The notes: a model not told the origin generated them from the sequence alone. 64,000 bases of DNA from an uncultured bacterium (GCA_905479655.1 CAJQNK010000123.1:26553-90552); one strand, 5' to 3'; positions 5,906 to 60,900 are shown, counted from the stretch's first letter. Program-made: numbers and translations.

Positions 5906-5933
5906 CGAACGGTCGCCCTGGTAGGCTCGTACC

Positions 5934-7758: not shown

Positions 7759-7764
7759 GCGTTC

Positions 7765-7987: not shown

Positions 7988-8039
7988 GAGGGCCGGCCGG
8001 CGCGCGCGTCGTCCGGCCCTCTTCGTGTCCGCCCGCCGC

Positions 8040-15235: not shown

Positions 15236-15431
15236 CGGCTCCCGCCCCGGCGCGGAGGGGTTCGTGGCCGTTCGTGTCATACTCTCGGCTCGCCTCCCAG
15301 TTCCCAGGAGCTCGCCGCGGTCGCCGGAACGGGCCGCGGAGATCGACGACCCCGGTGCGGGCCGCCCGGGCCGCCGCCTTCGGGCGCGGATCCTCGCGCG
15401 GCGGGCCCGCGCCGAGAGAGGAGTGAATCCG

Positions 15432-21198: not shown

Positions 21199-22146
21199 TC
21201 AGGGGGCGCTCTCGTCCGCGGTCGGGGGCAGGGCCGGCGAAATGTACGGCACGAGGCCCGGGTCCGGGGGCCACGGTAGGAGGAGACCGCCGCCGATACC
21301 GCGGGCCACCTCGTTGCCGTAGAGGTGGGCGACGAGGTACATGGCGACGTCGAAGCTGCGCGCGCCCCCCTGGGAGGTGAGGGCGGGGCCGTCGTGGACG
21401 AAGCTGACGTTGACCTGGAGGTCGATCCCGGGGAAGCGCCGGGCGAACGACTCGTAGTCGGAGGGGAAGGTAGTGGCGGACCTCCCGTCCAGCAGATCCG
21501 CCTCGGCCAGGACGAAGGCGCCCCAACACAGGGAGACGACGAAACGCGCGTCGGAGCCGACCCGCCGTACCCACTCGACCAGCTCGCGGTTCTCGAGGTC
21601 GGTGCCCCGGCTGCCCTGGGCGCTCGGCACGACCAGGATGTCGAGGGCCGGGGCGTCGGCGAAGCCGAAGTCGGGCGTCAGCCGCAGGCCTTCCGCGGTG
21701 GTGACCGGCCGGCCGTCGGGAGAGATCGAGACGACGTCGATCCAGGGCTCGCCGCGAACGTGGTAGCGGGTGTGCTGGAGCACGTCCCACGGGGCGGTGA
21801 GCTCCGTGTTGTATACGCCGTCCACCAGCAGGAAGCCGGCCACCAGGGGCTTGGGGTCGGTGGGCTGGTCGGCGCTCCCGTCGCCGCCGGCCACGATGGC
21901 CGTCGGGAGCCCCAGGACGAGGAGCGTGGCGAGGGTCCATCTGGAGACGAGGGAGTGGAGCAGGGTATGGCGGAACGAGGCGTGGCGGAACAAGGCGAAG
22001 ACCCTCCGGTTGCGAGGCCGATGATACCGCACGGCCCCGGGGTCTCCGGGGCGGCCGAGATCCGCGGCTCGTCCCCGATCGGAACCTCCGTCGGGGTCCG
22101 GCTGGCATTCCATCGACTTTGGGGGATAATAGGGCGCTCGTTTCAC
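21199..22146 (-). CDS. DJ-1/PfpI (class I glutamine amidotransferase-like) family protein, probably exported; start codon uncertain
   Basis: Nucleophile-elbow VVSLCWGAFVLAEA; hydrophobic N-terminal segment TLATLLVLGLPTAIVAGG; several candidate starts. Confidence 0.6.
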   Translation of the reverse strand: MKRAPYYPPKSMECQPDPDGGSDRGRAADLGRPGDPGAVRYHRPRNRRVFALFRHASFRHTLLHSLVSRWTLATLLVLGLPTAIVAGGDGSADQPTDPKPLVAGFLLVDGVYNTELTAPWDVLQHTRYHVRGEPWIDVVSISPDGRPVTTAEGLRLTPDFGFADAPALDILVVPSAQGSRGTDLENRELVEWVRRVGSDARFVVSLCWGAFVLAEADLLDGRSATTFPSDYESFARRFPGIDLQVNVSFVHDGPALTSQGGARSFDVAMYLVAHLYGNEVARGIGGGLLLPWPPDPGLVPYISPALPPTADESAP

Positions 22147-22217
22147 CAGAACGTCGCGCGGCTCACGGCCGCGTTCGCCCCAAGCCGCTGCTCCGGGTGA
22201 GAAGGAGACCGACTCAA

Positions 22218-40691: not shown

Positions 40692-40816
40692 GGGATCTCG
40701 GGAGGCAGGGAAGGAGGCGGGCTCGGTGGCGGCGGACCCTCTCCGGCCGAGTCTATCCCCCCCGGGCCGAGTCGCTCCAGATTCGGAACGTTGGCGCGGA
40801 GGTCTGCGGACCGATC

Positions 40817-41611
40817 TCAGTCGCGGCCGCGTTCGGCCATCGCTCGGCGATAGCGCTCGAGCACGTCTCCGGTGGCGCCCACCGCGCCCAGACGGCCGTC
40901 CTCGATCCACGCGGCGCGGTCGCACTGCCGCCCGACCGTCTCGAGATCGTGGGAGACGAGCAGGACGGATGTACCCGCCGCGCGGAACCCGGCGATGCGC
41001 TCCATGCACTTGGCCTGGAAGCGGGTGTCTCCCACGGCCAGGACCTCGTCGAGGATGAGGATGTCGGGCCGCTTCAGGGTGGCGACGGAGAAGCCGAGGC
41101 GCGCCAGCATGCCGCTCGAGTAGTTGCGGATCGGCACGCTGGCGAACTCGCGCAGCCCGGCGAAGGCGATGACCTCGTCGAAGAGCCTCTCGATCTCGGT
41201 TCGGGCGTACCCCAGGATCATGCCGTTGAGGAAGACGTTCTCGCGGCCGGTCAGGTCGGGATGGAACCCGGCGCCCAGCTCGAGCATGGGAGCGACGCGT
41301 CCGCGCACGACGACCCGCCCCTCGGTGGGGCGGAGGACGCGGGAGACGACCTTGAGGAGGGTGCTCTTGCCCGAGCCGTTGCGCCCCACGATGCCGAAGA
41401 CCTCCCCCGGCTCGACGACCAGGTCGAGATCGTGCAGGGCCCAGAGATCCCGGTAGTGGACGCCTCCGGTGACCCGTCGCAGCACGAACTCCTTGAAGCT
41501 GACGATCCGGTCGTCGGGAAGCCGGTAGCGCACCGAGACGCCGGAGACCTCGATCGCCGGCTCGGTCGCCACCCGGCCGCTTCGCTCGGCGCCTTCAGAC
41601 GCGATAGTCAA
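40817..41611 (-). CDS. ABC transporter ATP-binding protein (polysaccharide/teichoic-acid exporter type, Wzt/TagH-like)
   Basis: Walker A GRNGSGKST, signature SSGMLARLGF, Walker B ILILDEV. Confidence 0.85.
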   Translation of the reverse strand: MTIASEGAERSGRVATEPAIEVSGVSVRYRLPDDRIVSFKEFVLRRVTGGVHYRDLWALHDLDLVVEPGEVFGIVGRNGSGKSTLLKVVSRVLRPTEGRVVVRGRVAPMLELGAGFHPDLTGRENVFLNGMILGYARTEIERLFDEVIAFAGLREFASVPIRNYSSGMLARLGFSVATLKRPDILILDEVLAVGDTRFQAKCMERIAGFRAAGTSVLLVSHDLETVGRQCDRAAWIEDGRLGAVGATGDVLERYRRAMAERGRD

Positions 41612-42425
41612 AAGCGTCTCTCCAGTGCGTGAAGGTCCACCAGCCGGCCACGAGGGTGACGAGGCCCAGAGCCGTGCCGATGGCCCAGGTCTCCGGCGAA
41701 GCGACGTGACCCTCGTAGACGGGGTCGCGCACGAGGCGCAGCAGGTGGGTCAGCGGGTTGAGCTCCAGGAGGTGGCGGTGCTTCTCGCTGACCACCGTGA
41801 TCGGGTAGATGATGGGAGTCGCGTACATCCAGGCCGTGAGGAGCACCTGGTAGGTCAGGTTGACGTCGGGGAAGAACGCGGCCAGGGTCGAGATCAGCAT
41901 CCCGACCCCCAGGGCGAAGAGGCAGACCACGAAGATCGCGGGGACGAGGGAGACGAGCGCCATCTCGAACGGTCGTCCGAGGAAGATCATGATCGCGGCG
42001 AGCGGGATCAGGGCGAGGAGCCAGTTGATCAGGTAGGTGACCACAGCGGCGACAGGGAAGGCGCTCCGGGGGACGTGGATCTTGCTGGCCAGACCCTGGC
42101 TCGCCAGCACCTCGTCCGCCATGGCCGTGGTGCCGCGTCGGAAGAAGTCGAAGAAGGTCAGCCCCACCAGCACATAGACCGGGTAGCCGTCGACCTCGAA
42201 GCGGAAGAGAGACGAGAAGACGACGGTCAGGATGACCATCGTCATCAGGGGCTCGATCAGGGTCCAGAGGACTCCGAGAACCGATCGCTTGTAGCGGATC
42301 TTGATTGTCCGGACGGCCCACATCAGGACGAGCTCGCGGTAGCGCCAGATCTCCAGCCACTCCTCCACGAAGGGGTGGGGGCGGAGCTCGGAGTCGTAGA
42401 TCGGACGGACGGGGTCGGAGTTCAT
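41595..42425 (-). CDS. ABC-2 type transporter permease (Wzm/KpsM-like)
   Basis: ATG at 42425; MWAVRTIKIRYKRSVLGVLWTLIEP ABC-2 signature; 6 TM; 17-nt overlap with the ATPase gene. Confidence 0.8.
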   Translation of the reverse strand: MNSDPVRPIYDSELRPHPFVEEWLEIWRYRELVLMWAVRTIKIRYKRSVLGVLWTLIEPLMTMVILTVVFSSLFRFEVDGYPVYVLVGLTFFDFFRRGTTAMADEVLASQGLASKIHVPRSAFPVAAVVTYLINWLLALIPLAAIMIFLGRPFEMALVSLVPAIFVVCLFALGVGMLISTLAAFFPDVNLTYQVLLTAWMYATPIIYPITVVSEKHRHLLELNPLTHLLRLVRDPVYEGHVASPETWAIGTALGLVTLVAGWWTFTHWRDAFDYRV

Positions 42426-42518
42426 TGCACAGGCTGGAGGGCCGAGGACGGGGAGCCCGGTCCGAGACGCCGATGCTAGCACCGGCGTCGCTCCGACGGC
42501 CATCGGAGGCGACTCGCG

Positions 42519-45204: not shown

Positions 45205-46635
45205 TCACTCCTCCCCCAACACCGCCTTCGCTCCCTCCTGGCCCCAGTGGAACGCCTCCTCGTTGAGGGGCAGGAGCGCGCAGTGGTTCTTGAGCGCCTG
45301 GGCCATGGCCTGGTGGAAGGTCGCCACCGGGAACAGGCCCGTCGCCGCCTGGAGCGCCCCCAGGGCGACGACGTTCTTCACCATCGCCTTCCCGAGGTCC
45401 AGGGCGATCTGGGTGCACGGCACGCCGACCATTCGGATCGACGGGTCGACCTCGGGGACCTTCTCGATCACCGAGGAGTCGTAGATCACCGTGCCGCCGT
45501 GCCTCACGTGGGGCGCGAACTTGTCCATGCTCGGAGCGTTGAACGCGACCAGCACGTGGGGCTCGGGAGAAGCGGGAGACAGGACCTCCTCCTCGGCCAC
45601 GTGGACGTCGGCGTACGAGGTGCCGCCACGAGACTCCGGGCCGTAGGAGGGGATGTAGGTCGAGTCGTAGCCCTCGTTGATCCCGGCCCGGGCGGTGAGC
45701 GCCGCCACGGTCTGGGCCCCGTCGCCGCCGGCGCCGGCGAACTTGATCGCCACGTCGTGGGCGTCGAGGTGGCTCGGGAACGCCTCGGCGAAGCGCTCGG
45801 GGGAGTCGGAGGTGGCGCCGATGGCCGCCGCCATGGCGTCGGGCTCGAAGTTCGGCGTGCCCAGGTCGAACCACGGCTCGACCTCGATGTCCTTCTTGAC
45901 CCCCAGCGGGAAGACGGCGGTCATCGCCTTCTCGACCCACTTCTCGGCCTCGACGGGCGTCATCTTGAGGTGGGTCGGGCACTCGGCCAGGACCTCGACG
46001 AAGGCCAGGCCTCGGTTCTCGGCCTGCAGGCGGAACGCCTTGGTGATGGCCTTCTTCGCGCGGTTGCGCTGCTTGCTGTCGTAGAGAGCGACGCGCTCGA
46101 CGTACATCGGGCCATCGAGCTGCGCGATGGTCTCGGCCACCTTCAGGGGCTCGCCCGTCAGCCGTGTGCGACCGGTGGGTGTCGTGGTCGTGCGCATGTC
46201 CATCAGCGTGGTGGGCGCCATCTGGCCGCCCGTCATGCCGTAGACCGCGTTGTTGATGAAGATGAAGGTCATGGGCAGCCCGAGCTGGGCCGCCTGCATC
46301 ACCTCGGCGAGGCCGATCGAGGCCAGGTCTCCGTCCCCCTGGTAGGAGAGGACGATGGAGTCGGGGTTGGCCATCTTGTGGCCCAGCGCCACGGCGGGCG
46401 CGCGGCCATGGGCGGCCTGGGTGTTGCCCACGTCCAGGTAGTAGTAGAGGAAGACGGAGCAGCCGACGGGCGAGACGGCGATGGTGCGGTCCTGGATCCC
46501 CAGCTCGTCGATGGCCTCGGCCATGAACTTGTGGACCAGGCCGTGCCCGCAACCCGGGCAGTAGTGGGTGCTGTGGCCCTTCAGGCCTTCGCCGTGGGCG
46601 TGACGCTCGAAGCGGTTGTAGAAGGCGCCTTCCAT
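45205..46635 (-). CDS. 2-oxoacid:ferredoxin oxidoreductase beta subunit (TPP-binding) fused to gamma subunit
   Basis: ATG 46635; HYCPGCGHG, GDGD...N TPP site (SYQGDGDLASIG), C-terminal gamma-like domain (FAGAGGDGAQTVA...). Confidence 0.8.
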   Translation of the reverse strand: MEGAFYNRFERHAHGEGLKGHSTHYCPGCGHGLVHKFMAEAIDELGIQDRTIAVSPVGCSVFLYYYLDVGNTQAAHGRAPAVALGHKMANPDSIVLSYQGDGDLASIGLAEVMQAAQLGLPMTFIFINNAVYGMTGGQMAPTTLMDMRTTTTPTGRTRLTGEPLKVAETIAQLDGPMYVERVALYDSKQRNRAKKAITKAFRLQAENRGLAFVEVLAECPTHLKMTPVEAEKWVEKAMTAVFPLGVKKDIEVEPWFDLGTPNFEPDAMAAAIGATSDSPERFAEAFPSHLDAHDVAIKFAGAGGDGAQTVAALTARAGINEGYDSTYIPSYGPESRGGTSYADVHVAEEEVLSPASPEPHVLVAFNAPSMDKFAPHVRHGGTVIYDSSVIEKVPEVDPSIRMVGVPCTQIALDLGKAMVKNVVALGALQAATGLFPVATFHQAMAQALKNHCALLPLNEEAFHWGQEGAKAVLGEE

Positions 46636-46636
46636 G

Positions 46637-48046
46637 TCAACGGCCCTCCAGGCCGACGATCTTCTCGACGATCTCGCCCTGCTGGGGGAGCACGCCGCCG
46701 AAGTGCCGGACATTCTCGATTCGGTGGAAGGGTTGCTGGGCGTGGGAGAGGGCGAGTCGCAGCTCGTCCTCGAGCTGACCGGAGCCGGCCTCGACCATCA
46801 CCAGGCCCCGGATGCGTCCCAGGAGAGGCTCCAGATCGTCGATGGGGAAGGGCCAGAGGGAGATCGGTCGGAACAGGCCGGCCTTGATCCCCCGTTCCCG
46901 CAGCGTCCGCACGGCGCCCTTCGCCATGCGAGCCGGGGTGTTGCAGGCCACGATCACCCAGTCGGCGTCCTCGCACTGGTAGAGGTCGGCCCGCTGCTCG
47001 TTGGCGCGCATCGTCGCGTACTTCTCGTTGAGGCGCAGGTTGTGCTGCTCCAGATCGGTCTCGGAGAGGAAGATGGAGCACAGGAGGTTGCGACGGTGGT
47101 CGCGGTCGCCCCAGACCGCCCACTCGGGGAGGCCGGGGCGGATCATGGTGTCGGGCAGCTGCACCCGGCCCGTCATCTGGCCCAGGTAGCCGTCCGCCAC
47201 CAGGACCACCGGGTTGCGGTACCGGAACGCGAGGTCGAACGCCTCCAGGGTGAGGTCCAGCATCTCCTGGGGGGTCGAGGGCGCCAGCACCAGGGCGTGG
47301 GTGTTGCCGTGGCCCAGGCCGCGGCACACGAGCTTGATGTCGCTCTGCTCCGGCGCGATATTGCCCAGGCCGGGGCCGCCCCGCATGACGTTGATGAAGA
47401 CCCCGGGGATCTGGGAGCCGATCATGTAGGAGATCCCCTCCAGCATGAGGCTGAAGCCCGGCGACGAGGTGAAGGTCATGGAGCGCAGGCCCGCGCCGCC
47501 ACAGCCGTACATCATGTTGACGGCCGCGACCTCGCTCACCGCCTGGAGGAAGACGCCGTCGAGCTCGGGCAGGAGCTTGGCCATGAGCTCGGCTCCCTCC
47601 GTCGACGGGGTGATCGGATAGCCGAAGAAGTGTCGGCAGCCGGCCAGGAGCGCGCCCACGGCGGCGGCGTGATTGCCCTTGAGCACCATCGTCTCTAGGC
47701 GGGGCAGCTCGACCGTCGTGTTCGGGATATCCCGGGGCTCGGGCGCCTCGGTGAGACGTGGGCCGAACAGCGCCTCGGGATCGAGCAGCTCGAAGTCGAC
47801 CTCCTCGGTGGGCTCGGGCATCAGGCCGAACGGCTCGGGGCACGCGGTGATGCACAGACCGCAGGTGTTGCACTCGTCCAGGTTCACGACCACGGGCGTG
47901 AAGCCGGTGGCGGGGTCGATCTCCGTACCGAGCTCGATGCAGTGCTTCGGGCAGGCCTCGATACAGCGACCGCAGGCCTTGCAGAATTCCGGGAAGAGGA
48001 ACGGCTTGGGCCGAACCTTCTTGGGGGTCTTGGCCGTCTTCGTCAT
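46637..48046 (-). CDS. 2-oxoacid:ferredoxin oxidoreductase alpha subunit with N-terminal 2x[4Fe-4S] ferredoxin (delta-like) domain
   Basis: ATG 48046 after AGGAAAG; CKACGRCIEACP and CNTCGLCITACP clusters followed by the alpha-subunit core (GYPITPSTE). Confidence 0.8.
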   Translation of the reverse strand: MTKTAKTPKKVRPKPFLFPEFCKACGRCIEACPKHCIELGTEIDPATGFTPVVVNLDECNTCGLCITACPEPFGLMPEPTEEVDFELLDPEALFGPRLTEAPEPRDIPNTTVELPRLETMVLKGNHAAAVGALLAGCRHFFGYPITPSTEGAELMAKLLPELDGVFLQAVSEVAAVNMMYGCGGAGLRSMTFTSSPGFSLMLEGISYMIGSQIPGVFINVMRGGPGLGNIAPEQSDIKLVCRGLGHGNTHALVLAPSTPQEMLDLTLEAFDLAFRYRNPVVLVADGYLGQMTGRVQLPDTMIRPGLPEWAVWGDRDHRRNLLCSIFLSETDLEQHNLRLNEKYATMRANEQRADLYQCEDADWVIVACNTPARMAKGAVRTLRERGIKAGLFRPISLWPFPIDDLEPLLGRIRGLVMVEAGSGQLEDELRLALSHAQQPFHRIENVRHFGGVLPQQGEIVEKIVGLEGR

Positions 48047-48266
48047 CGTCTTTCCTGATCTGATTGGCGGGTCGTCGCCGGACCGGCCCCGGCCCTCGAG
48101 TACGGCGGGAGAGGGCGACCGCACGGCGCGGTGGGGTCGGATCGACGGCTCCTTCTCAATGCTAGAGACGAGGCCGGCGAAAGTGACCACCCGACAGGGC
48201 GGTTGGGGCGACGCGGACGGATGGGGCCGCCGCTGGCCCCGGCGACCGTCCGCGCCGGGGCTGGGG

Positions 48267-50119: not shown

Positions 50120-52006
50120 CTACCGGGCGCCGCCGACGGAGGCGGGGCGCTCCACGAGCAGGTCGTCGACCCAGGCCTCGGAGCCCGCGGCGCCGAGGCT
50201 GAAGGCGGTCGTGCCCCATACGGCTCCGTACTCCGGCTCCGGGCCGGAGACGACCTCCGTGCCGTCCACCAGGACGCGCACCGTGGCACCGTCGGATTCG
50301 AGGCGGACGGTATGCCACACGTCGAGCCCGAAGGCGAAGTCGGCGGCACCGAGCTCGGTGACACCCTCCAGCGTCGAGCGGGTGAGGGTCAGGCGGTCGG
50401 CGCTGATTCTGGCCGTGTAGCCCTGGAGGAGGGCCTGGTAGGCGGCCGTGGAGAACAACGCCTCGCCGGCGACGAGCTTGACGCGGGCCTCCGCGGAGTA
50501 GGAGCGCAGGGGCGCGAAGATCAGGAGGGCCAACGGACTCCCGCCGCTGCCCAGGGTGCCGTGCAGCGCGCGGTTGGCTCCGTCGCCCTCCGGTACGAAC
50601 TCCCAGCGGTTGCCGCCGCCGTAGAGCTGGAACCAGGCGCCCGTCTCCACGGGGTCTTCGAAGTCGCTCTCGAAGAGGATCCCGGTCGGCTCATCCGCCG
50701 GCCAGACCTGCTCGGCCCGTCGGCTCAGAGTCAGCAGCTCGGCCTCCATCTCCGCCGCCAGGTCGGGGTCGGAAAGGGCGAGATCCAGCTCCTCGAGAGG
50801 GTCGGCATCGAGATCGTAGAGCTCGATCCCCGCGTCGGGGAGGAGGGCCTCCCCGCCATGGATGAGCTTCAGGTTCTCCCGCTCGTAGCTGCGGGTGATC
50901 TCGTCGTGTGCGACCCGGCGGGGCGGTCGCGGGTCGACGAGCAGGCTCTTGCCCTGAAGACCGCCCGGCGCCGGGATGCCCAGGCCCTGGAGGATGGTCG
51001 GCATGAGGTCGAGGTGGTCGGCGTTGCCGCCCAGCGTGACCCCCCGCAGCCCGCTCCAGATCGCAGCGCCCGACCGCGGCGGCACCACGAGCAACGGCAC
51101 CCGGGTGTTGCCGTCGTACTGCCCCTCGTGGCAGAAGTAGTAGCCGCGCTCCCCGGCGAGCTCCTCGCCGTGGTCCGCCGTGACGATGACGAGCGTGTTC
51201 TCGCGCAGCCCCTGCGCCTCCAGCACGTCGAAGACCTGCCGGAGCTGGTCGTCGATGTATGCGAGGAGCCCGTCGTACTGGGCGACGTACCAGTCCATGC
51301 TCACGATGTCGTCGATCACGGCGGTCGGCTTCATCCCGCCGATGCAGTCCGAGGAGATGCCGGGGACGTCACCCAGGCCGCCGTAGTACGGGTCGTCGAC
51401 GAACAGGGTGTCGTAGGGCGCGGGCGCGACGTAGGGGGCGTGGGGCCCGATGGGCTGGGCATGGACGAAGAACGGTCGTCGGGCCGGGTCCTCGAGGACG
51501 GCGACGAGCTGGTCGGTGTGGTTCTGGTCGGGGCGCGGGGTCAGGACCGTCGTCTCGTAGACGCGCGCCATCCGCGACGCCGGCGTCAGCACCGAGTTGC
51601 TGGTGATCGCCGTGGTGCTGTAGCCGTGCTCCGCGAGGAGCTCGGGAAGGGTCTTCCAGGCCGGGCTGATGGAGAGCTCCTGGGCGTAGACCTTGTGGGT
51701 CGTGACCGTCCGCGAGGTCAGGATCGAGGAGACGCTGGGCCAGGTCCAGGTGGAGGAGGAGTGGAAGTCCGTCCACAGGGCGCCCTCCGCCGCCAGGCTC
51801 TCCAGGAACGGCGTCGTCCGGCGCTCATAGCCGTAGAGGCTGAAGTGGTCGGCCCGCGCCGTGTCGATGACGTAGAGGAGGACGTTGAGCGCTCCCCGGT
51901 CGAGAGCGGGCTCGGTGAGCCCAGGGGCGGCGCTGGCTGCACCGGCCGTCAGGCAGCAAGCGACCGCCAGGTGGACGGTGGCGACGCGGCGGATCTTGGA
52001 GTTCAT
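50120..52006 (-). CDS. Secreted sulfatase-fold protein with Thr in place of formylglycine Cys, plus C-terminal beta-sandwich (ConA/LamG-like) domain
   Basis: Signal peptide; LLYVIDTARADHF and SSSTWTWPSVSSILTS (T-W-P-S-V at the C-x-P-x-R position); VTADHGE. Confidence 0.75.
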   Translation of the reverse strand: MNSKIRRVATVHLAVACCLTAGAASAAPGLTEPALDRGALNVLLYVIDTARADHFSLYGYERRTTPFLESLAAEGALWTDFHSSSTWTWPSVSSILTSRTVTTHKVYAQELSISPAWKTLPELLAEHGYSTTAITSNSVLTPASRMARVYETTVLTPRPDQNHTDQLVAVLEDPARRPFFVHAQPIGPHAPYVAPAPYDTLFVDDPYYGGLGDVPGISSDCIGGMKPTAVIDDIVSMDWYVAQYDGLLAYIDDQLRQVFDVLEAQGLRENTLVIVTADHGEELAGERGYYFCHEGQYDGNTRVPLLVVPPRSGAAIWSGLRGVTLGGNADHLDLMPTILQGLGIPAPGGLQGKSLLVDPRPPRRVAHDEITRSYERENLKLIHGGEALLPDAGIELYDLDADPLEELDLALSDPDLAAEMEAELLTLSRRAEQVWPADEPTGILFESDFEDPVETGAWFQLYGGGNRWEFVPEGDGANRALHGTLGSGGSPLALLIFAPLRSYSAEARVKLVAGEALFSTAAYQALLQGYTARISADRLTLTRSTLEGVTELGAADFAFGLDVWHTVRLESDGATVRVLVDGTEVVSGPEPEYGAVWGTTAFSLGAAGSEAWVDDLLVERPASVGGAR

Positions 52007-52084
52007 GGCACGGGTCCTCTCTGGGGGTGGGTCGCTTCGACGCAGGCAACGACTTCCCGCACGGTACTCTCGGCCGGCTTCCCT

Positions 52085-54217
52085 CTACGGCTCGCGCAGA
52101 AGCCGAAGCGCCTCGAGTTCCTCGGCGCTGCCGGGCGCGAGCTCGGCAACCCGCCGGAGATGCCGCCGGCCTTCCTCGACGGCGCCGGTCGCCAGCTCGG
52201 CGCGGCCCAGGCGCAGGAGGATCGAGACGCTCGAGGGCGCCAGCTCCGCGGCGCGGCGGTAGCGCCCCGCCGCCTCTGCCCCTGAGCCGGTGCGCTCGGC
52301 GTGGTCGCCCCAGAGAACCCAGGCCATCGCCCACTTCGGCGTCAGCTCGGTGGCGGTCGCGAAGTGGCGCTCCGCGGCGGCGGATCGTCCGCCGGCCATC
52401 TCGATCTGTCCCAGTCGGGCGTGGATGGCCGCGCTCTCCGTCCCGGCCTCCACCGCCGACAGCAGGAGCTCGCGCTCCCGGTCCGGCCGGCCGCTGCGTA
52501 GCGCGATCTCCCCCAGGCCGAGCCAGGCCCGTGCGGAGCGGGGATCGAGCTCGAGGACGGTCTCGAGAGTGTCGCGGGCGTCGTCGGTCCGGCCGAGGGC
52601 GAGGAGAGCCTCGGCCAGGTGGAGGTGAAGGAACTCGAGACGCGGGTTGAGCTCGACGGCTCTGCGCAGGGTGGCGAGTGCCGCCTCGCCCTGGCCCGCC
52701 GCGCGCTCGGCGCCGGCGAGATGGGTGAGGAAGGGGATGGTGTCGGGGCTCCGGCGCACCAGGTCCCGAAGGGCGGCGACCGCGGGCCCGGGGTGGCCGG
52801 CTCGGAGGAGTTGGCGGGCCTCGTCGAGCTCCGCGAGCATCTTCACTCCGTCCTTCGGATCAATCGAACCGCCTTCCGGCGAGCCGCCGGTGAGGTAGCC
52901 GAGGGCCCGCAGATCGGCGGCCAGACCGGCGTCGATCGGCTCGGCGGCCGGTGCGGACTCCGCTCGCGGCCCCTCGAGCGCCGCGAGCTCGCTCTCGAGC
53001 CGCTCGGCGACCTCGGGCTCCTCGCGCACCCGGTTCGAGGTCTCGTCCGGGTCGGCCGCCAGGTCGTAGAGCTCCAGGCCGGGTCCGCGGATGAGACGCC
53101 ACGACCCGTCCGTGATCGCGGTGAGCGGGCTCCATCCGTAGGCGGTCGCCGGCAGTCGCGTCTCGCTGAAAATCGGCCGGGGGGAGGGATCCGCGCCGGT
53201 CGACGGCAGCCCGGGCAGGGGCACGCCGAGGCCGGGCGCCTCCGCCGTGAGGCCGAGAAGGCAGAGGAGCGTGGGAGCCAGGCGTCGGGACGCGACCGTC
53301 TGCTCCACGACCCGGCCGGACGGAACCCCGGGTCCGGCGACGATCAGGGGCACCGCGAGCGTGGCGCCGTGGAGGAAGAGCCCGTGGGTCCGCTCGCCGT
53401 GCTCGCCGAGCGACTCGCCATGGTCGCCCACCGCCGCTACGATCGTGCTCCGACCGTCCTCGGGAAGAGCGGCCAGGAGACGGGCGATCTGGCTGTCCAC
53501 GTAGGCGATCTCGCCCGCGTAGCCCGCCTCCGGAGTGGCGTCGCGCCACGGCTCGGGCGGGGAGTAGGGGGCGTGGGGATCGTAGTAGTGGACCCAGAGG
53601 AAGAAGGGACGGCCCGCACTCCGCCGGGCGAGCCAGTCGAGGGCCCGGGAGGTCACGGCCTCGGCATCGCGCTCGGGGTATCCGTACTCGCCGACCTCCT
53701 CCGCGGTCATCCGGTCGTCGTAGGTGGCGAATCCCGCGGCGAGGCCGAACCGGCGGTCGAGCACCCGCGAGGCCACGAACGCCCCGGTGTCGTACCCCTC
53801 GGCCGCCAGGACCGTCGCCAGCGTGGGTACTCCGGGGGTGAGGACACTGGTGCCGTTGTCGCGCGCGCCGTGCGCGGGAGGCGCGAGGCCGCTCAGCAGG
53901 GAGGCGTGAGACGGGAGCGTGAGGGGTGAAGACGAGACGGCGTCGGACCACCGGGTGCCGCGGGCGGCGACCGCGTCGAGGGTCGGCGTGCGAGCCTCCG
54001 CATTGCCGTAGATCCCGAGGGCGTCGGCACGGGTGGTGTCGAGGGTCAGGAGCAGCAGGTGCGGGGCGGCGACCGCCGCCGGCTCGCTCGATCGCGCGGA
54101 AGCTGATGGCGCCGGCGGCACCGCCGCCATCAGCACCGCTGCCAGCAACGCCGCCAGCAGCATCGGGGGCCGGTGGGCCGGTCTTCGCCGGCAGTCGCGG
54201 GGGGCCGTCGTCGTCAT
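52085..54217 (-). CDS. Secreted sulfatase-fold protein (Thr at FGly position) fused to a C-terminal TPR array
   Basis: LLLTLDTTRADALG, SSSPLTLPSHASLLSG (T-L-P-S-H), VGDHGESLGEHGE; about 9 TPR-like helices at the C-terminus. Confidence 0.75.
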   Translation of the reverse strand: MTTTAPRDCRRRPAHRPPMLLAALLAAVLMAAVPPAPSASARSSEPAAVAAPHLLLLTLDTTRADALGIYGNAEARTPTLDAVAARGTRWSDAVSSSPLTLPSHASLLSGLAPPAHGARDNGTSVLTPGVPTLATVLAAEGYDTGAFVASRVLDRRFGLAAGFATYDDRMTAEEVGEYGYPERDAEAVTSRALDWLARRSAGRPFFLWVHYYDPHAPYSPPEPWRDATPEAGYAGEIAYVDSQIARLLAALPEDGRSTIVAAVGDHGESLGEHGERTHGLFLHGATLAVPLIVAGPGVPSGRVVEQTVASRRLAPTLLCLLGLTAEAPGLGVPLPGLPSTGADPSPRPIFSETRLPATAYGWSPLTAITDGSWRLIRGPGLELYDLAADPDETSNRVREEPEVAERLESELAALEGPRAESAPAAEPIDAGLAADLRALGYLTGGSPEGGSIDPKDGVKMLAELDEARQLLRAGHPGPAVAALRDLVRRSPDTIPFLTHLAGAERAAGQGEAALATLRRAVELNPRLEFLHLHLAEALLALGRTDDARDTLETVLELDPRSARAWLGLGEIALRSGRPDRERELLLSAVEAGTESAAIHARLGQIEMAGGRSAAAERHFATATELTPKWAMAWVLWGDHAERTGSGAEAAGRYRRAAELAPSSVSILLRLGRAELATGAVEEGRRHLRRVAELAPGSAEELEALRLLREP

Positions 54218-54517
54218 CCTCTGCTCTCGGCGTCGAGGGGTTCCGTCGGGCTCGGGCGAGCGCGCCGTCGGACGCGGAAGCGGGCCACCCGGCGGACGGG
54301 CGCCGATTATACCCGGGGGCCCGAGACCGCCTCGAAATAGAGCTTTCGTTCCTCTCCCTTTGTTTGGTAAGGTTGTTCAATTCCTGAGAACCGGTCGACG
54401 CGATGTAGGTGATCCGCTACCGCTGCCCGAGTCCTTCGCGGAGGACGGGGGTGATCCGGACCCTCCGGAGTCGAGTGCCCTGCCGCGCCGACCACCCTGA
54501 GAGAAAGAGGAGGCTCC

Positions 54518-57500
54518 ATGCGAGCGAGTCGTCGAGGATCTGCCTGGTCCGTCTGTCTTCTGGTTGCGGTCGTGTTTTCGGCCGTGCCGGCTCCGGCTGC
54601 GATCCAGCCGGAGAGAAGCCCCGAGATTGCCGCGCTCGAGCTGTACAGCTCCGAGCTCAACGTGCGCAACGTCTACCAGGAGGTGGGCCAGCTCCCGGGC
54701 AGCCTCGCCTCCGCGGCGCAGGGGGACCTGTTGGCTCTCGGGTTGACTCCCGAGCGCGCGCGGATCGACCGCCGCACGGGTCGCTGGGGGACGCTCCTCC
54801 TCTCCCGTCCCCTGATCCCCGGCAGCGGCGTCGGCAACGACCTCCGCTGGGACGAGGCTCCGCGCAACGATGCGGCTCTTCAGGCCCGGGTCTGGACGGC
54901 CTTCGCCGCCTTCCTCGACGCGCACCGCGGTGAGCTGCGGGTCGATCGGTCCGAGATGCCCAACCCGGGCCGTGTCACCGTCCACGAGGACGGCAACGTG
55001 ATCCAGATCTACGCCCCGCGCGTGATCGACGGCATCCCGGTGCGTGACAGCTACATCAACGCGGTGGTCAACCACGGCAACCTGGTGCTCGTGGGCGTGA
55101 ACAACTGGGGTGACGTCCGCTCCTCGGTGCAGCCCTCGGTGAGCCCGGAGGCGGCGCGTCGCGTCGTGGACGAGCACGTCGGAGACGTCCGGGTCCGGGG
55201 CCTCTGGCGGGGTACCTCGCTGATCATCCTGCCGCTGGCCCGTGGCGCCGACAGCGCGCGAGTGGAGCCGGGGCGTGGTCTCGACCACCGTCTGGCGTGG
55301 GTCGTGCGGCCGCTGCTGGCGGGGGACCAGGGCCGCTGGGAGGCGTTGGTCGACGCCGAGACCGGGAGGCTCCTCGCTTTCCAGGACACCCAGCACTACG
55401 CTTCGGCCCGTCTCGTCCAGGGTGGCGCCTACCCGGTGTCGAACGACGGCGCTCCGCCCGACGGAGTCGAGGTGCTCGGCACGCCGATGCCCTTCGACAG
55501 CGTGGTCACCGAGGTCGGGACGCTGGTCACCGATTCGGGTGGCAACCTGCCGCTGGCGGTCGACGGCAACATCACGTCGTCGCTGGACGGGCAGTACGTC
55601 AGGATGGCCGACGTCTGCGGCGCGATCAGCCTGACCTCCGGGGGCGACCTCGACTTCGGCGGCTCGGGCGGAGACGACTGCACCACGCCGGGATTCGGCG
55701 GCGCCGGGAACACCCACTCGTCGCGCTCGGGCTTCTACGAGCTCAACCGGATCAAGGAGCAGGCGCGCGGCTGGCTGCCCGCCAATGGGTGGCTCATGGG
55801 TACGCTGACCGCCAACATGAACATCAACTCCAGTTGCAACGCCTTCTGGAGCGGCTCGACGGTGAACTTCTACCGCTCCGGCGGTGGCTGTGGCAACACC
55901 GGTGAGCTCGCCGGCGTTTTCGACCACGAGTGGGGCCACGGCATGGACGACAACGACGCCGTTCCCTCGATCTCGAATCCGGGCGAGGGCATCGCGGACG
56001 TCTACGCCGGCCTGCGTCTCGATACGTCCTGCATCGGCCGCGGGTTCTTCTCCAGCAACTGCGGCGGCTACGGCGACCCCTGCATCGCCTGCACGGGCAT
56101 CCGCGACATCGACTGGGCCAAGCGCGTTTCGGGGGTACCGCACGACATCGCCTGGATCGACGCCAACTGCGGCGGCGGTCCCGCGCCCTGCGGCGGCATC
56201 GTCCATTGCGAGGGGGCCGTGTACTCCGAGGCGGTATGGGACACGTACACGCGAACCCTGCCGAACCAGAGCGGCCTCGATCCCAACACGGCGTTGGAGG
56301 CGACCACGCGGCTGACGTTCCTGGGCGCGGGTGGCGTCGGGAGCTGGTACCAGTGCTCCGCGCCGTTCGGCGGCTGCAACGGGAGCGGTGGCTACCTCAA
56401 CTACCTGGCCGCCGACGACGACGACGGTGACCTGAACAACGGCACGCCGCACATGACCGCTCTGTTCAATGCGTTCGACCTGCACGACATCGCGTGCAAC
56501 ACCCCGGTGGTGCAGGACTCGGGTTGCGTGGGCACCCCGACGTCGGCGCCCATCGTGACCTCGTCGCCCGCCGACAAGTCGGTCGCCCTGTCCTGGGACC
56601 CCGTCGCCGACGCGACGGAGTACCAGGTCTTCCGCGGCGAGGGCGTCTTCCAGTGCGACTTCGGCAAGGTGAAGATCGGGGAGACCACGGGGACGAGCTT
56701 CATGGACACGGGCCTGCAGAATGGGCGCGAGTACTCCTACGTGGTGATCCCGATGGGCTCCGCCGACACCTGCTGGGGGCCGGCCTCGAGCTGCACGGTC
56801 GAGACCCCGGTGAGCGGTCCGAACCTGTCGGTCGACCCGGGCTCGCTGGTCCTCACCTTCAACACGGGTGACGGCGACGACTTCATCGACAACTGCGAGT
56901 CGGCGACCGGCACCTTCACGGTGACCAACACCGGTCTCGGAGGTCTGACCAACGTGAACCTCGAGTCGATGGTCTCCACGTCGCACCCGCTGGTGTCGAT
57001 CGACGCCGTGGGCATGATCACCCCGGACATCCTGGCCGAGGGCGAGAGCGCCACCGGGACCTTCGACTTCACCGCCAAGGGCCTCGCCCACCTCGACACG
57101 CTGTTCTTCGAGGCGACGGTGACGGCGACGGAGATCGCGGGCGACCGGACCGGCAGCGTATCGACCGGCTCGGCCGAGAGCGATGCCGAGTTCGTCGCCG
57201 CCATCACCTACGACTTCGAGGCCGATACCAACGGCTGGGAGGTGATCTCCGGGACGTTCGACCGCACGGACGCGAGCGGCGGTGGCGCCAACGGCACTGC
57301 CTTCTACGAGCAGTCCTCGTCCTTCCTCGAGGACCAGTGCGACCACATCCGGTCGCCCGTCGTCTCGTTGTCGCCCACGTCGACACTGAGCCTCTCGACC
57401 CGCTTCGACATCGAGGCGGAGTTCACCCCGGGGGTCTGGTACGACCGCGCCAACGTCGGTCTGTACGACCTCGGGACCGGGTCGCGGACGCTGGTCACGC

Positions 57501-57793
57501 CGTCGGGCGGTCGCGCCTACAACGCGAGTGGCGCCAACGGCACCTGCGGCACGGACGGTCAGGGGGGTTGGGCCGGCACGATGGACAGCTGGTCTCCCAG
57601 CGCCTGGACGTCGACGGCGCTGAAGTCGGCCGAGTTCTCCGGCAAGCGCATCCAGCTCGATGTTCGTTACGGCACCGATCCTCTGGAGCACGGCTTCGGC
57701 TTCCGCTTCGACGAGGTCACGCTGACGGACCTGGCGCTCGTGGTGCCCGACACTCAGAAGAACTCGTCGACGCTGGGGGTCTGCGTCCCCTAG
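54518..57793 (+). CDS. Large secreted Cys-rich zinc-metalloprotease-like protein (HExxH) with Fn3-like and beta-sandwich domains, 1091 aa
   Basis: Signal peptide; VFDHEWGHGMDDND zinc-binding motif; multiple Cys pairs (CGGYGDPCIAC, NCGGGPAPCGG); Fn3-like SWDPVADATEYQVFR; the antisense 1161-aa ORF is rejected. Confidence 0.75.
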   Translation: MRASRRGSAWSVCLLVAVVFSAVPAPAAIQPERSPEIAALELYSSELNVRNVYQEVGQLPGSLASAAQGDLLALGLTPERARIDRRTGRWGTLLLSRPLIPGSGVGNDLRWDEAPRNDAALQARVWTAFAAFLDAHRGELRVDRSEMPNPGRVTVHEDGNVIQIYAPRVIDGIPVRDSYINAVVNHGNLVLVGVNNWGDVRSSVQPSVSPEAARRVVDEHVGDVRVRGLWRGTSLIILPLARGADSARVEPGRGLDHRLAWVVRPLLAGDQGRWEALVDAETGRLLAFQDTQHYASARLVQGGAYPVSNDGAPPDGVEVLGTPMPFDSVVTEVGTLVTDSGGNLPLAVDGNITSSLDGQYVRMADVCGAISLTSGGDLDFGGSGGDDCTTPGFGGAGNTHSSRSGFYELNRIKEQARGWLPANGWLMGTLTANMNINSSCNAFWSGSTVNFYRSGGGCGNTGELAGVFDHEWGHGMDDNDAVPSISNPGEGIADVYAGLRLDTSCIGRGFFSSNCGGYGDPCIACTGIRDIDWAKRVSGVPHDIAWIDANCGGGPAPCGGIVHCEGAVYSEAVWDTYTRTLPNQSGLDPNTALEATTRLTFLGAGGVGSWYQCSAPFGGCNGSGGYLNYLAADDDDGDLNNGTPHMTALFNAFDLHDIACNTPVVQDSGCVGTPTSAPIVTSSPADKSVALSWDPVADATEYQVFRGEGVFQCDFGKVKIGETTGTSFMDTGLQNGREYSYVVIPMGSADTCWGPASSCTVETPVSGPNLSVDPGSLVLTFNTGDGDDFIDNCESATGTFTVTNTGLGGLTNVNLESMVSTSHPLVSIDAVGMITPDILAEGESATGTFDFTAKGLAHLDTLFFEATVTATEIAGDRTGSVSTGSAESDAEFVAAITYDFEADTNGWEVISGTFDRTDASGGGANGTAFYEQSSSFLEDQCDHIRSPVVSLSPTSTLSLSTRFDIEAEFTPGVWYDRANVGLYDLGTGSRTLVTPSGGRAYNASGANGTCGTDGQGGWAGTMDSWSPSAWTSTALKSAEFSGKRIQLDVRYGTDPLEHGFGFRFDEVTLTDLALVVPDTQKNSSTLGVCVP

Positions 57794-57927
57794 CTCCACG
57801 GAGTCGTCGATCCGGCGGGTAGCGTTCGCACCCGTCGGAGATCGAGGCGTCGGGCCGTTCACGGCCCGGCGCCTCTTCCTTTTCGCGCGTTCGGGTACCG
57901 CGGGGGCCGTGCTACGCTGCCGCCGCT

Positions 57928-60063
57928 TTGGGTCGCCAGCGACGCCCCCCGATCGGAGGTCACGACCCCGCCGCGTCCGGCTCGGCGGCCGGGTGCCGAC
58001 TCCGATGCGCCGTGGCCGGGGTCGTCCTCGTGGCGTGCGCCGGCGGGCAGCCGGTGCGGGCGTCCGGAGACGTGGACCCGCCGCCGCCCAGTGTCCTGCT
58101 GATCACCATCGACACCCTGCGGCCCGACGCCCTCGGCTGGGTCGGTGGCGGCGACTGGACGCCGCAGCTCGACGCGCTGGCGCGGGAGGGGGTTCGATTC
58201 CCGGCGGCGGTCGCGCCCGCCCCCCTGACCCTGCCGTCCCACGCCTCGCTCTTCTCGGCGCTGGTGCCCCGGCGTCACGGTGTACACGACAACGGCCGGA
58301 TGCTCGGTGCAGGGGTGCCGCTCCTGGCCGAGAGGCTCAGCGCCGCGGGTTGGGACACCGCGGCCTTCGTCAGCGGCTACCCGTTGAGCGGGTCGTTCGG
58401 TCTGCGGCGCGGCTTCGGCCACTACGACGACCGTCTCACCGCCGGCGACGGGGCCTGGCTCGAACGCCCCGCCCGCGAGACGAACGGCGCCGCCCGGGCC
58501 TGGATCTCCGAGGCCACGGAGCCCTGGTTCGCGTGGGTCCACTACTACGATCCCCACTTTCCGTACGAGCCGCCCGACGAGCTCCGCCGGCCGGGTCGCC
58601 GGGGGGCCTACGACGGCGAGGTGGCGGCCGTCGATCGGGCGCTGGGCGAGCTCCTGACCACGGCTCGCTCGGCCGCCACGAGGACCGGTCTGCTCACCGT
58701 CGCCACCGCCGACCACGGCGAGAGCCTCGGCGAGCACGGTGAGGGGACCCATGGCTTCTTCGTCTACGACAGTACCGTGTTGGTGCCGATGGTCTGGCAC
58801 CTTCCCGGCCGGCTGACAGCCGCCGAGCGCGCCGAGCCCGCGCGTCTGGTCGATGTCGCGCCCACCGTGCTCGAGCTCCTCGGCCTGCCGCCTCTCGAGG
58901 GGGTCGACGGCGTCAGCCTGGTGCCGCTCCTCGAGGGGCGGCCGCAACCGCTGCCGCCGGCGTACGTGGAGACCTTCCAACCCTGGATCTCCTACGGCTG
59001 GGCGCCCCTGACGGCGGTGCGCCACGACGGCTTCAAGCTGATCGCGGCGCCGCGGCCGGAGCTCTACGACCTGCGGGCCGACCCGGAGGAGACCCGCAAC
59101 GTGGTCGCGACCGAGCGCCGCCGCGCCCGGGAGCTGCGGCGTCTCCACGCGGAGGCCGAGGCGTCGCCGCCCGCGGCCTCCGCGGAGACCGTCGGCGACC
59201 CGGAGGTGGCTCGCCGGCTCGCCGCCCTGGGCTACGTGGGATCGGCCGGAGCGCCCGCGGCGCCGCCGCCCGGGCTCGCCGATCCCAAGGACCGCCTGGC
59301 CCTGCGGGAGACCCTGACCGAGGCCGACCGGAGGGTGCGCGGCGGCGACCTGCAGGGCGCGCTGGAGCGGTTCGACCGCGTGCTGGCGGAGGAGCCTCGG
59401 AACCGCTTCGCGCTCTCCCGCTCCGGCGAGGCTCTCCTGACGGCGGGGGCCTTGGCCCCGGCCATCGAGCGCCTGCGGCTCGCCTCCCGACTGGATCCCG
59501 ACCAACCCGAGGTCCGCCGGCTCCTGGGCACCGCGCTGACGCGTGCCGGGCTCCTCGACGAGGCGCTGGACCAGTGGCTGGAGCTCGTCCGGCTCCAGCC
59601 GTGGAATCCCGTGGCCTGGTCGAACCTGGGAGCGACCCTGGGTCGCTCCGGCAGGTCGGCGGACGCGGTGGCGGCGATGGAGAAGGCCGCCACCCTGGCC
59701 CCCGGCGACCCCGACCGTCTGATCCGACTGGCCTTCGCCGAGGTCGACGCGAGGCGGATCTCGGACGCCGTGCGGCATCTGGCCGAGGCCGCGGAGGTCT
59801 CGGGTGAGGCGTTCGAGCACGCCGGCACGCTGGGCCTCTTGCTCGAGCAGACCGAGCGCGCCGCCGAGGCGACGCAGTGGCTCGAGAGGAGCCGGCCGGG
59901 GCAGCCCGACTTTGCGCAGGCGCGCCTGACCCTGGCCCGGAGGAGAGCGTCGGCCGGCGACCCGACGGGCGCTCGAGTCGCCCTGGCCGAGGCCCTGGCC
60001 GTCGATCCCGGCCTCGCGGCCGTCGCATCGGCCGACGAGCTGCTGGCGTCGCTCATGCCCTGA
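57928..60063 (+). CDS. Secreted/lipoprotein sulfatase-fold protein (Thr at FGly position) fused to C-terminal TPR array; paralog of 52085..54217; start uncertain (possibly GTG near 58009 giving lipobox LVAC)
   Basis: LLITIDTLRPDALG, PAPLTLPSHASLFSA (T-L-P-S-H), TADHGESLGEHGE, TPR region. Confidence 0.7.
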   Translation: MGRQRRPPIGGHDPAASGSAAGCRLRCAVAGVVLVACAGGQPVRASGDVDPPPPSVLLITIDTLRPDALGWVGGGDWTPQLDALAREGVRFPAAVAPAPLTLPSHASLFSALVPRRHGVHDNGRMLGAGVPLLAERLSAAGWDTAAFVSGYPLSGSFGLRRGFGHYDDRLTAGDGAWLERPARETNGAARAWISEATEPWFAWVHYYDPHFPYEPPDELRRPGRRGAYDGEVAAVDRALGELLTTARSAATRTGLLTVATADHGESLGEHGEGTHGFFVYDSTVLVPMVWHLPGRLTAAERAEPARLVDVAPTVLELLGLPPLEGVDGVSLVPLLEGRPQPLPPAYVETFQPWISYGWAPLTAVRHDGFKLIAAPRPELYDLRADPEETRNVVATERRRARELRRLHAEAEASPPAASAETVGDPEVARRLAALGYVGSAGAPAAPPPGLADPKDRLALRETLTEADRRVRGGDLQGALERFDRVLAEEPRNRFALSRSGEALLTAGALAPAIERLRLASRLDPDQPEVRRLLGTALTRAGLLDEALDQWLELVRLQPWNPVAWSNLGATLGRSGRSADAVAAMEKAATLAPGDPDRLIRLAFAEVDARRISDAVRHLAEAAEVSGEAFEHAGTLGLLLEQTERAAEATQWLERSRPGQPDFAQARLTLARRRASAGDPTGARVALAEALAVDPGLAAVASADELLASLMP

Positions 60064-60336
60064 GGCCGGCTCGGGGTCGGGAGCGGACGCTCGGTGCGCT
60101 TCGGAGAGGCTCTGCGGAGTGGCTCGGAACCGAGATATCGACATTCCTGCATGAACGCGGTATCGTTCAACGGCTCCGCCTGTCGGAGCTGGGCCGCGGC
60201 GCTTCCCCGGGCGTCGTGGCCCTTCTTGTCTGCCGGTCCTCGGGTGGGCCGTCGAGCTCCGGCCCGGTTCGGTAGACTCGGACCTCGACGAGGCCGGCCC
60301 CCCGCCCGCCTCGACCATCGCTGGAGGAGGAGATCC

Positions 60337-60900
60337 ATGTCCGGAGCGAGCGCCCCCGGGGCGAGCATGACCTGGCTGCTTTTCGTGGCCATGACGGTGG
60401 CCTTCTGGGGTCTGTACGGCATCTTCCTGCACTCCGGTCAGATGGCGATGGGGGACCCGGTTCACGGGCGCTACAAGGCCTTCCTGTTCGTCGGTATCGC
60501 CTACTTCCTCGCGGCGGTGCTCGCCCCCATGGCGGTGTTGGCGTCCACCGGCGCCGAGTGGAGCTTTGCGCCGAGCGGCATGCTGCTGTCGCTGATCGCC
60601 GGTCTGGTGGGTGCCGCGGGGGCCTTCGGCGTGCTCCTCGCTTTCGGCGCCGGAGGCTCCCCGGCGGTCGTGATGTCGATCGTCTTCGCCGGCGCTCCCA
60701 TCGTGAACGCCGGGGTCGCCCTGATGCTCCATCCGCCGGCCGGCGGCTTCGGCGCCCTGCGCTGGCAGTTCGTGCTGGGGATCGTTCTCGCCGCCGTGGG
60801 CGGCAGCCTGGTGTCCCTCTACAAGCCGCCTCCGGCGCCGGCCAAGAGCCCGCCGGCCGTGGTCGGCGGCTCGGCCGGGTCCGGCGTCACGACGGACTGA
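60337..60900 (+). CDS. Hypothetical small membrane protein (4 TM, 187 aa)
   Basis: GGAGGAGGAG then ATG; hydrophobic helices; Pro/Ala-rich tail. Confidence 0.55.
   Translation: MSGASAPGASMTWLLFVAMTVAFWGLYGIFLHSGQMAMGDPVHGRYKAFLFVGIAYFLAAVLAPMAVLASTGAEWSFAPSGMLLSLIAGLVGAAGAFGVLLAFGAGGSPAVVMSIVFAGAPIVNAGVALMLHPPAGGFGALRWQFVLGIVLAAVGGSLVSLYKPPPAPAKSPPAVVGGSAGSGVTTD

Follow-up and report, generated by a model that had tools for sequence, protein, structure and literature searches.

Four genes in a 64,000-nucleotide stretch of DNA from an uncultured bacterium (GCA_905479655.1 CAJQNK010000123.1:26553-90552; hereafter the window) encode exported proteins with a sulfatase fold, named p1 to p4, that carry a threonine where sulfatases have the formylglycine-forming cysteine. 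We propose that p1–p4 are probably metal-dependent phosphoesterases, less likely transferases, that use this Thr as a nucleophile on a sulfatase scaffold; they are almost certainly not sulfatases. The case is built on the position and conservation of the Thr, on the residues that surround it, and on the relation of the four proteins to sulfatases and to the phosphoethanolamine transferases EptA and MCR-1.

The window has a G+C content of 68–77%. All four open reading frames (ORFs) listed in a preliminary description of this DNA are present; their G+C at third codon positions (GC3) is 0.89–0.94, and a codon-position filter scores each of them as a gene. Their Pfam matches, domains and motifs are as follows, with tetratricopeptide repeats abbreviated TPR and p2 residues in the numbering of the 710-residue ORF.

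52085–54217, minus strand: p2, exported protein of sulfatase fold, TPR array at the C-terminus (PF00884, E 2e-41; many TPR families)
~52883–54070, minus strand: p2 catalytic domain
~52103–52828, minus strand: p2 TPR array
53906–53920, minus strand: p2 motif TLPSH with T100, standing where sulfatases have C/S-x-P-x-R
p2 putative site residues: D60, T100 (nucleophile), H104, N121, H215, D265, H266, E268, H278
57928–60063, plus strand: p3, sulfatase-fold protein with TPR (PF00884, E 1e-29; TPR families; SGSH_C)
~58081–59247, plus strand: p3 catalytic domain
~59290–60027, plus strand: p3 TPR array
58228–58242, plus strand: p3 motif TLPSH with T101
p3 putative site residues: D62, T101, H105, H210, D262, H263, E265, H275
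50120–52006, minus strand: p1, sulfatase-fold protein without TPR (PF00884, E 4e-46)
~50717–51889, minus strand: p1 catalytic domain
51731–51745, minus strand: p1 motif TWPSV with T88
36431–38683, minus strand: p4, lipoprotein-like (PF00884, E 5e-40)
37769–38602, minus strand: p4 N-terminal ~300 residues, no assigned domain
36434–37756, minus strand: p4 sulfatase-fold domain
37595–37609, minus strand: p4 motif TLPST with T359
p4 putative site residues: N-terminal pair D319-A320; D555, H556, E558, H568

The catalytic domains of p2 and p3 are 45% identical and those of every other pair 26–29%; the four paralogs are old. A fifth Thr-type sulfatase-fold copy was not found within the window. A single hydrophobic stretch at the N-terminus, a signal peptide or lipoprotein signal, is the only membrane-type segment of each protein. 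P2 carries a signal peptide only, and its likelier start is Met19 (54163), which gives a 692-residue protein identical to database protein P0001; p3 has a probable lipoprotein signal with the lipobox LVAC. TPR arrays are confined to p2 and p3, which lie on opposite strands and flank the gene for a 1091-residue protease, just as the preliminary description had it. The C-terminal ~200 residues of p1 (50123–50716) give sub-threshold matches of the concanavalin-A, LamG and 3-keto-disaccharide-hydrolase kind (E 0.006–0.03) and may form a carbohydrate-binding module.

Nucleophile position and putative active-site residues

Alignments place the Thr of all four proteins at the sulfatase nucleophile. 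With HMMER, the p2 segment L-T-L-P-S-H falls on L-C-S-P-S-R of the wild-type carrageenan sulfatase 6pt4, which sets Thr on Cys and the motif His on the motif Arg, and the Thr of T-W-P-S-V in p1 falls on the formylglycine position of 4upi. A MAFFT alignment sets all four Thr on the first Ser of S-S-P-T-R in E. coli AslA. The Thr codons are ACC or ACG, two changes distant from the Cys codon TGC, which rules out a sequencing slip. The same residue is found in 120/120 homologues of the p2/p3 subfamily, with the pattern T-x-P-[AS]-H, in all 102 p2/p3 copies from 80 related genomes, in 118 of 120 p1 homologues, reaching down to 30% identity, and in every one of the 136 p4 representatives that align at the motif (150 were sampled, 14 of them gapped there). 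His, Val, Thr, Phe or Met occupies the fifth position of the motif; Arg was never seen there. Judging from these homologues, the Thr is no accident of this genome. The preliminary description had claimed a Thr in place of the formylglycine Cys in all four paralogs, and the claim holds: alignment to sulfatases lands the Thr at the nucleophile position, and its conservation is nearly complete across four subfamilies. Its reading of the N-terminal acidic pair as D-T is right for p1, p2 and p3 and wrong for p4, which reads D-A.

The residues that bind sulfate in sulfatases are missing from p1–p4 or replaced. The motif Arg gives way to His, Val or Thr; the GKWH segment of AslA, which supplies the sulfate-binding Lys and His, is a gap in all four proteins (MAFFT), and HMMER alignments to sulfatases end just ahead of it; the Lys at +13 from the metal Asp is a His in all four (HMMER, MAFFT). 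The sulfatase reference residues are K110/H112 and D311/H312/K324 of the E. faecium enzyme EfAS. Proteins of the p2 family have F-V-A-S-R-V-L-D-R-R-F-G-L in place of the sulfatase GKWH, with invariant Ser, Asp and Arg, and a conserved linker, L-G-Y-L-x-G ... I-D-P-K-D-G, ahead of the TPR array; L-G-Y-V is found at the end of p4 too.

The D-H-G-E motif is retained and reads D-H-G-E-x-L-G-E-H-G-x-x-x-H-G. In a modest hhalign match (probability 50%, E 1.6e-4) that is limited to this C-terminal metal motif, p2 VGDHGESLGEHGERTHGL (also DHGESLGEHGERTHG) aligns one-to-one with E. coli EptA LSDHGESLGENGIYLHGL (also DHGESLGENGIYLHG), D-H-G-E-S-L-G-E-N-G-I-Y-L-H-G. The metal site of MCR-1 is known: D465, H466, E246 and T285 hold Zn1, H395 and H478 make up a second site that contacts phospho-Thr285, and E468 orients H478 (PMC5216409). 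By alignment, the p2 equivalents of this set are D265, H266, D60, T100, H215, H278 and E268, all of which are present and conserved. The N-terminal Asp is kept in 120/120 homologues (p2/p3), 115/120 (p1) and 134 of 136 aligned p4 representatives, D-H in 120/120 p1 homologues, and DHGE or DHGD in 141 of 144 aligned p4 representatives; across samples of 120–150 homologues, Thr, DH and the +13 His are conserved at 93–100%. In an alignment of 65 p2-family sequences, the Asp, Thr, Asp-His, His215 and His278 are invariant or exceed 90%. These alignments support a shift of the active site from sulfate-type to phosphate-type residues.

Two alternative explanations are weighed on this evidence. P1–p4 might be true sulfatases that work without formylglycine, either by using the Thr hydroxyl directly or after a radical-SAM maturase has converted the Thr to a keto residue. 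Sulfatases are their nearest relatives by sequence and fold, the SGSH_C subdomain is retained, and anaerobic sulfatase maturases can oxidise threonyl peptides in vitro. The explanation is nonetheless very improbable, since p1–p4 lack the motif Arg on which maturation and catalysis depend, the Lys and His that bind sulfate in sulfatases have been lost or exchanged for His, and neither a formylglycine-generating enzyme (FGE, PF03781) nor a radical-SAM maturase occurs among the ~35 window proteins scanned. An oxidised Thr would, moreover, yield a ketone and not formylglycine, and such a protein is not countable as a functional sulfatase without experiment (Barbeyron et al. 2016; SulfAtlas, PMC5066984). 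It is also improbable, if somewhat less so, that p1–p4 are non-catalytic or regulatory envelope proteins of the YejM/PbgA kind, which keep the metal site and in which the TPR array would scaffold or chaperone large proteins bound for secretion or for the outer membrane. Weak NCBIfam and PDB matches to YejM/PbgA, the TPR fusion and the very large exported proteins that adjoin speak for such a role; YejM scores of 15–24 bits against a threshold of 825 speak against it, as does the near-invariance of the proposed catalytic and metal residues in the 65-sequence alignment, the pattern of an active enzyme.

Relation to sulfatases and phosphotransferases

The best sequence matches in the PDB are choline sulfatase, carbohydrate sulfatases and phosphonate monoester hydrolases (PMH), with E values of ~1e-24 to 1e-20, and phosphoethanolamine transferases reach E ~1e-7 at best. 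We modelled the catalytic domain of p2 with AlphaFold (AF2) at a predicted local distance difference test score (pLDDT) of 82.8; the 50 best Foldseek matches listed for this model in the PDB are sulfatases or PMH only (E ~1e-23, TM 0.64–0.71). PF16347, the C-terminal subdomain, is matched along with PF00884, and D60, D265 and H266 of p2 are conserved. The fold, including this subdomain, is shared with S1 sulfatases and PMH (choline sulfatase 6g60, E. faecium arylsulfatase 9koq and A. radiobacter PMH 4uph), and p1–p4 have the Asp ... Asp-His metal ligands of the PMH/choline-sulfatase type as well as the conserved His of the P-H motif. Unlike S1 sulfatases, p1–p4 have the Thr, lack the motif Arg and the GKWH Lys and His, and carry His for Lys at +13; half of them also bear a TPR array.

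With EptA and MCR-1, and with LtaS and OpgB, the four proteins share the Thr nucleophile position, a metal site of an acidic residue plus Asp-His, and DHGE with a His 13 residues after the Asp; their second conserved His corresponds to His395 of MCR-1. In contrast to EptA and MCR-1, they are soluble and exported, carry TPR or other extra domains, and have a nucleophile segment of sulfatase-like form, T-x-P-x-x-x-x-L-x-[ST]-G. A multi-pass N-terminal membrane domain is found in none of p1–p4, and the EptA, MCR, CptA and LtaS models of NCBIfam score 14–47 bits, below cut-offs of 404–1250 in every case. Because the fold is nearest to sulfatases and PMH and the membrane domain is missing, p1–p4 are not members of the LtaS/EptA family; they are Thr-type offshoots of the sulfatase/PMH branch. 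The LtaS/EptA-like placement suggested in the preliminary description is therefore abandoned.

A third comparison is with the NPP/PafA group (PF01663, type I phosphodiesterase), which likewise uses a Thr nucleophile; in NPPs an Asp/His/His site holds two zincs. The N-terminal 136 residues of p2 match the Xanthomonas NPP 2gsn (E 1.8e-4), and the NPP nucleophile motif, T-F-P-N-H, follows the T-x-P-x-H pattern. All four proteins score above the PF01663 gathering score at 28–44 bits; PF00884, at 104–158 bits, outscores it by 60–120 bits. Two other possible precedents were set aside, namely the 'manganese-dependent arylsulfatase' of the NCBIfam matches, which is a Cys/formylglycine enzyme, and PhoY, to which p3 gives a match of 22 bits against a cut-off of 1000 and whose literature added nothing.

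The active-site likeness to EptA raises the question of whether p1–p4 transfer phospho-groups rather than hydrolyse esters. As transferases in the manner of EptA/MCR-1, LtaS, OpgB or BcsG, they would pass phosphoethanolamine, phosphoglycerol or the like, by way of a phospho-Thr, to an envelope polymer or protein, and the TPR array would pick the acceptor, possibly the neighbouring protease or an outer-membrane protein. The D-H-G-E...(+13)H arrangement is the motif of phosphoethanolamine transferases, the proteins are exported, and fusion to TPR is a typical trait of machinery for envelope polymers; NCBIfam matches to PrsT, BcsC, PgaA and LapB are weak and reflect generic TPR similarity only. 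To our knowledge, all characterised transferases of the EptA/LtaS kind have an N-terminal multi-pass membrane domain that reaches a lipid donor, and MCR-1 is described as membrane-bound (PMC5216409). P1–p4 have no such domain, their scores against the transferase models fall far short, and their fold is nearest to hydrolases, which makes transfer unlikely.

The metalloprotease and other neighbours

The gene between p2 and p3, and the hairpins that follow it and p3, have these features.

54518–57793, plus strand: secreted Cys-rich thermolysin-like zinc metalloprotease of 1091 residues, with signal peptide, 23 Cys and HEWGH
~54617–55387, plus strand: propeptide-like region
~55409–56512, plus strand: catalytic domain, with HEWGH at 55925–55939 and the third ligand in GEGIAD
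~56549–56797, plus strand: Fn3 domain
~57185–57772, plus strand: MAM-like C-terminus
57844–57875, plus strand: terminator-like hairpin (T-rich tail; 14-bp stem with 12 G-C) separating the p3 start from the protease stop
60191–60222, plus strand: terminator-like hairpin (14-bp stem) past the p3 stop

Residues 1–760 of the protease have no Pfam match, and a PDB sequence search up to E 1 came back empty, so that the likeness to thermolysin is visible only through the predicted fold. The AF2 model (pLDDT 87.3) matches M4 vibriolysin, LasB, ProA and thermolysin in Foldseek (E 1.5e-9 to 9e-6, TM(target) 0.56–0.67), matches the vibriolysin propeptide as well, and displays the Fn3 domain. H470, E471, H474 and E490, the last within G-E-G-x-x-D, are invariant in 61 homologues, together with many Cys. 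The C-terminus gives weak InhA-MAM and M36-C-terminal matches, and the NCBIfam M36 score, confined to the C-terminal region, is far below the cut-off. The protein is a divergent gluzincin (thermolysin-like). It has in common with M4 and M36 enzymes (vibriolysin, LasB and thermolysin; fungalysin) the HExxH, the downstream Glu in G-E-G-x-x-D, the fold and the propeptide-like region, and its C-terminal region resembles that of sortase-dependent M36 peptidases; it differs from them in its 10–17% identity to the structural matches, its many invariant Cys and the added Fn3 and MAM-like domains. Its family numbers at least 1,385 proteins, nearly all unnamed or labelled 'hypothetical protein' (relatives P0242–P0360). 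The HEWGH, the 23 Cys, the signal peptide and the M4-like model agree with the secreted, Cys-rich HExxH metalloprotease named in the preliminary description.

We clustered all long ORFs from 80 related sulfatase-TPR loci. The commonest neighbours of the sulfatase-TPR gene are this protease family (21/80 loci) and an Oar-like TonB-dependent receptor (20/80), a large β-barrel of 1000–1290 residues with CarboxypepD_reg and OMP_b-brl_4 domains; the two never share a locus, and the next families, at 10 and 9 loci, are generic. Most of these protease and Oar-like neighbours lie less than 1 kb off, in varying orientation. The locus L005 mirrors the window, and L003 has all three genes on one strand. 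The Oar-like gene lies within 1 kb in 14/20 loci and upstream on the opposite strand in 13/20; such loci (L024:363-4046, L027:5998-9744, L037:5922-9584, L058, L067, L070, L076 and others) come from Terriglobia, Vicinamibacteria, Aminicenantes-type and other Acidobacteriota. In the reverse direction, none of seven protease-centred loci has a PF00884-TPR neighbour. One of them, L087, has a PF01663-TPR fusion (9413–11371, minus strand) without the T-x-P-x-H motif, convergent to the protease homologue P0257; this fusion may stand in for the sulfatase-TPR partner as an analogue. Another, L083, contains TPR regulators and an Oar-like receptor. In L001, a Thermoanaerobaculia genome, three protease paralogs (2016–4781, 5501–8974 and 12115–15480) surround a single sulfatase-TPR gene. 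Local multiplication of the Thr-type sulfatase-like family is common, and some Planctomycetota and Acidobacteriota (L060, L068, L057, L075) carry 3–5 copies within 15–21 kb.

The hairpins after the protease and after p3 indicate separate transcription units. An operon of protease and p3 was rejected as the simplest reading, with the hairpin at 57844–57875 between the two genes, and an obligate protease/sulfatase-TPR module was rejected on the count of none in seven. P1 follows p2 on the same strand after 78 bp, and no terminator is predicted in between. The linked extracellular module of the preliminary description thus stands in part: the protease recurs beside the sulfatase-TPR gene, but the reverse association is missing and the hairpins part the genes. 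What remains hints at a recurrent, lineage-restricted association for shared extracellular work and at no fixed system. The same description had allowed for recombination or inversion between the inverted paralogs. The best inverted arms between p2 and p3 measure ≤85 nt at 71–83% identity, which is no substrate for such an event, the proteins are 45% identical, and we rejected inversion by p2–p3 recombination; in relatives (L003 versus L005) it is only the p2-like gene that is turned round, not the whole segment between the paralogs. The ORF at 60094–60900 is probably not a gene, as it has no family match and contains the hairpin at 60191–60222.

Elsewhere in the window, p4 is preceded at 50 bp, on its own strand, by a gene for a 758-residue protein with a C-terminal endonuclease/exonuclease/phosphatase domain (38733–41009, minus strand); this gene has an ABC-2 transporter pair upstream (40817–42503) and places a second type of phosphoester-cleaving enzyme beside a Thr-type paralog. 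None of the 80 related loci showed such a pairing, and a metagenome scan for the p4 context returned one distant locus only. Among the other genes, at 45205–48190, 22119–24299 and 1475–14180, are a 2-oxoacid:ferredoxin oxidoreductase pair, one whose product matches MtrC weakly, and a cluster for polysaccharide synthesis (a UDP-glucose dehydrogenase fusion, a glycosyltransferase and a PEGA protein).

Proposed chemistry and meaning

From the residue set we infer the following mechanism, in p2 numbering. One divalent metal would be held by Asp60, Asp265, His266 and the hydroxyl of Thr100, and the metal-activated Thr would attack a phosphate ester to give a covalent phospho-Thr intermediate. His215 and His278 would bind the phosphoryl group or a second metal, with Glu268 orienting His278, and Asn121 may assist. 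The intermediate would then be hydrolysed, transfer to an acceptor being less probable; a hydrolase, whether phosphomono- or diesterase, is favoured because p1–p4 have no membrane domain through which a lipid donor could be reached. The TPR array of p2 and p3 most likely docks the enzyme on an envelope partner, protein or polymer. The protease neighbour here and the Oar-type receptor in other lineages suggest a role for p2 and p3 in the processing or scavenging of extracellular macromolecules.

Several points weigh against the assignment as phosphoesterases. The closest relatives by sequence and structure are true sulfatases and PMH, which leaves room for sulfate- or phosphonate-ester chemistry. 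The EptA match is modest and confined to one motif, as stated above. Soluble transferases exist in the superfamily, for example the periplasmic form of OpgB, and p1–p4 may conceivably be of that sort. Only some loci pair the sulfatase-TPR gene with the protease, and transcription of the genes seems to end separately. A literature search for a characterised Thr-type sulfatase-fold/TPR protein, or for these subfamilies, returned nothing. Secreted phosphoester hydrolases or transferases, as the preliminary description had them, are thus backed by the Thr, the phosphate-type site residues and the export signals, with the kinship to the LtaS/EptA family removed from the argument.

The families are large. 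The catalytic domain of p2 has >7,000 database relatives at E ≤1e-10, of which the best 120 are 56–63% identical and nearly all TPR-fused, and p4 has 3,004 representative clusters at E ≤1e-30; p1 has only 17 homologues at ≥345 bits (345–605, E ≤3e-97), the next match scoring 180. The related loci belong to Acidobacteriota (Thermoanaerobaculia, Holophagae, Terriglobia, Vicinamibacteria), Myxococcota, Planctomycetota, Spirochaetales and other groups, and to judge by its nearest relatives the window may derive from a Thermoanaerobaculia-like acidobacterium. Database labels on the relatives read 'choline-sulfatase', 'arylsulfatase A-like enzyme', 'sulfatase' or 'sulfatase-like hydrolase/transferase', so the mis-annotation foreseen in the preliminary description is real. 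The general point is already known from Barbeyron et al. 2016 (PMC5066984), who named PF00884 as a source of false sulfatase annotations and found Thr for the catalytic Cys/Ser in 30 of 59 PF00884 seed sequences. Our literature search found nothing on the Thr clades within the sulfatase/PMH branch, the EptA-like second-shell set, the TPR fusion or the association with the protease or Oar-like receptor, and these four points appear to be undescribed.

Current views are not overturned, and specialists will not be surprised; the result is a defined biochemical target and an annotation caveat. Thousands of proteins that bear the label sulfatase, choline-sulfatase or arylsulfatase-like, from Acidobacteriota, Myxococcota, Planctomycetota and further bacteria of soil and sediment, have a phosphate-type site. 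Metagenome counts of sulfatases are inflated by such Thr-type proteins, and organic-phosphorus turnover may be under-counted. The Thr clade is a naturally occurring example of Thr chemistry adopted on a sulfatase scaffold, of interest for the evolution of the alkaline-phosphatase superfamily, and the protease adds a large family whose catalytic part lies outside all Pfam models. A bolder view, which we consider a long shot, is that p1–p4 are founding members of a very large clade beside the formylglycine sulfatases, with an EptA/NPP-like site rebuilt, whose TPR members partner big exported proteins in a hitherto undescribed system for phospho-modification of the envelope. If so, proteins or polymers might lose or gain phospho-groups in the course of secretion, maturation or nutrient capture, and the partner would be a new family of thermolysin-like proteases in some lineages and an Oar-type TonB-dependent outer-membrane protein in others.

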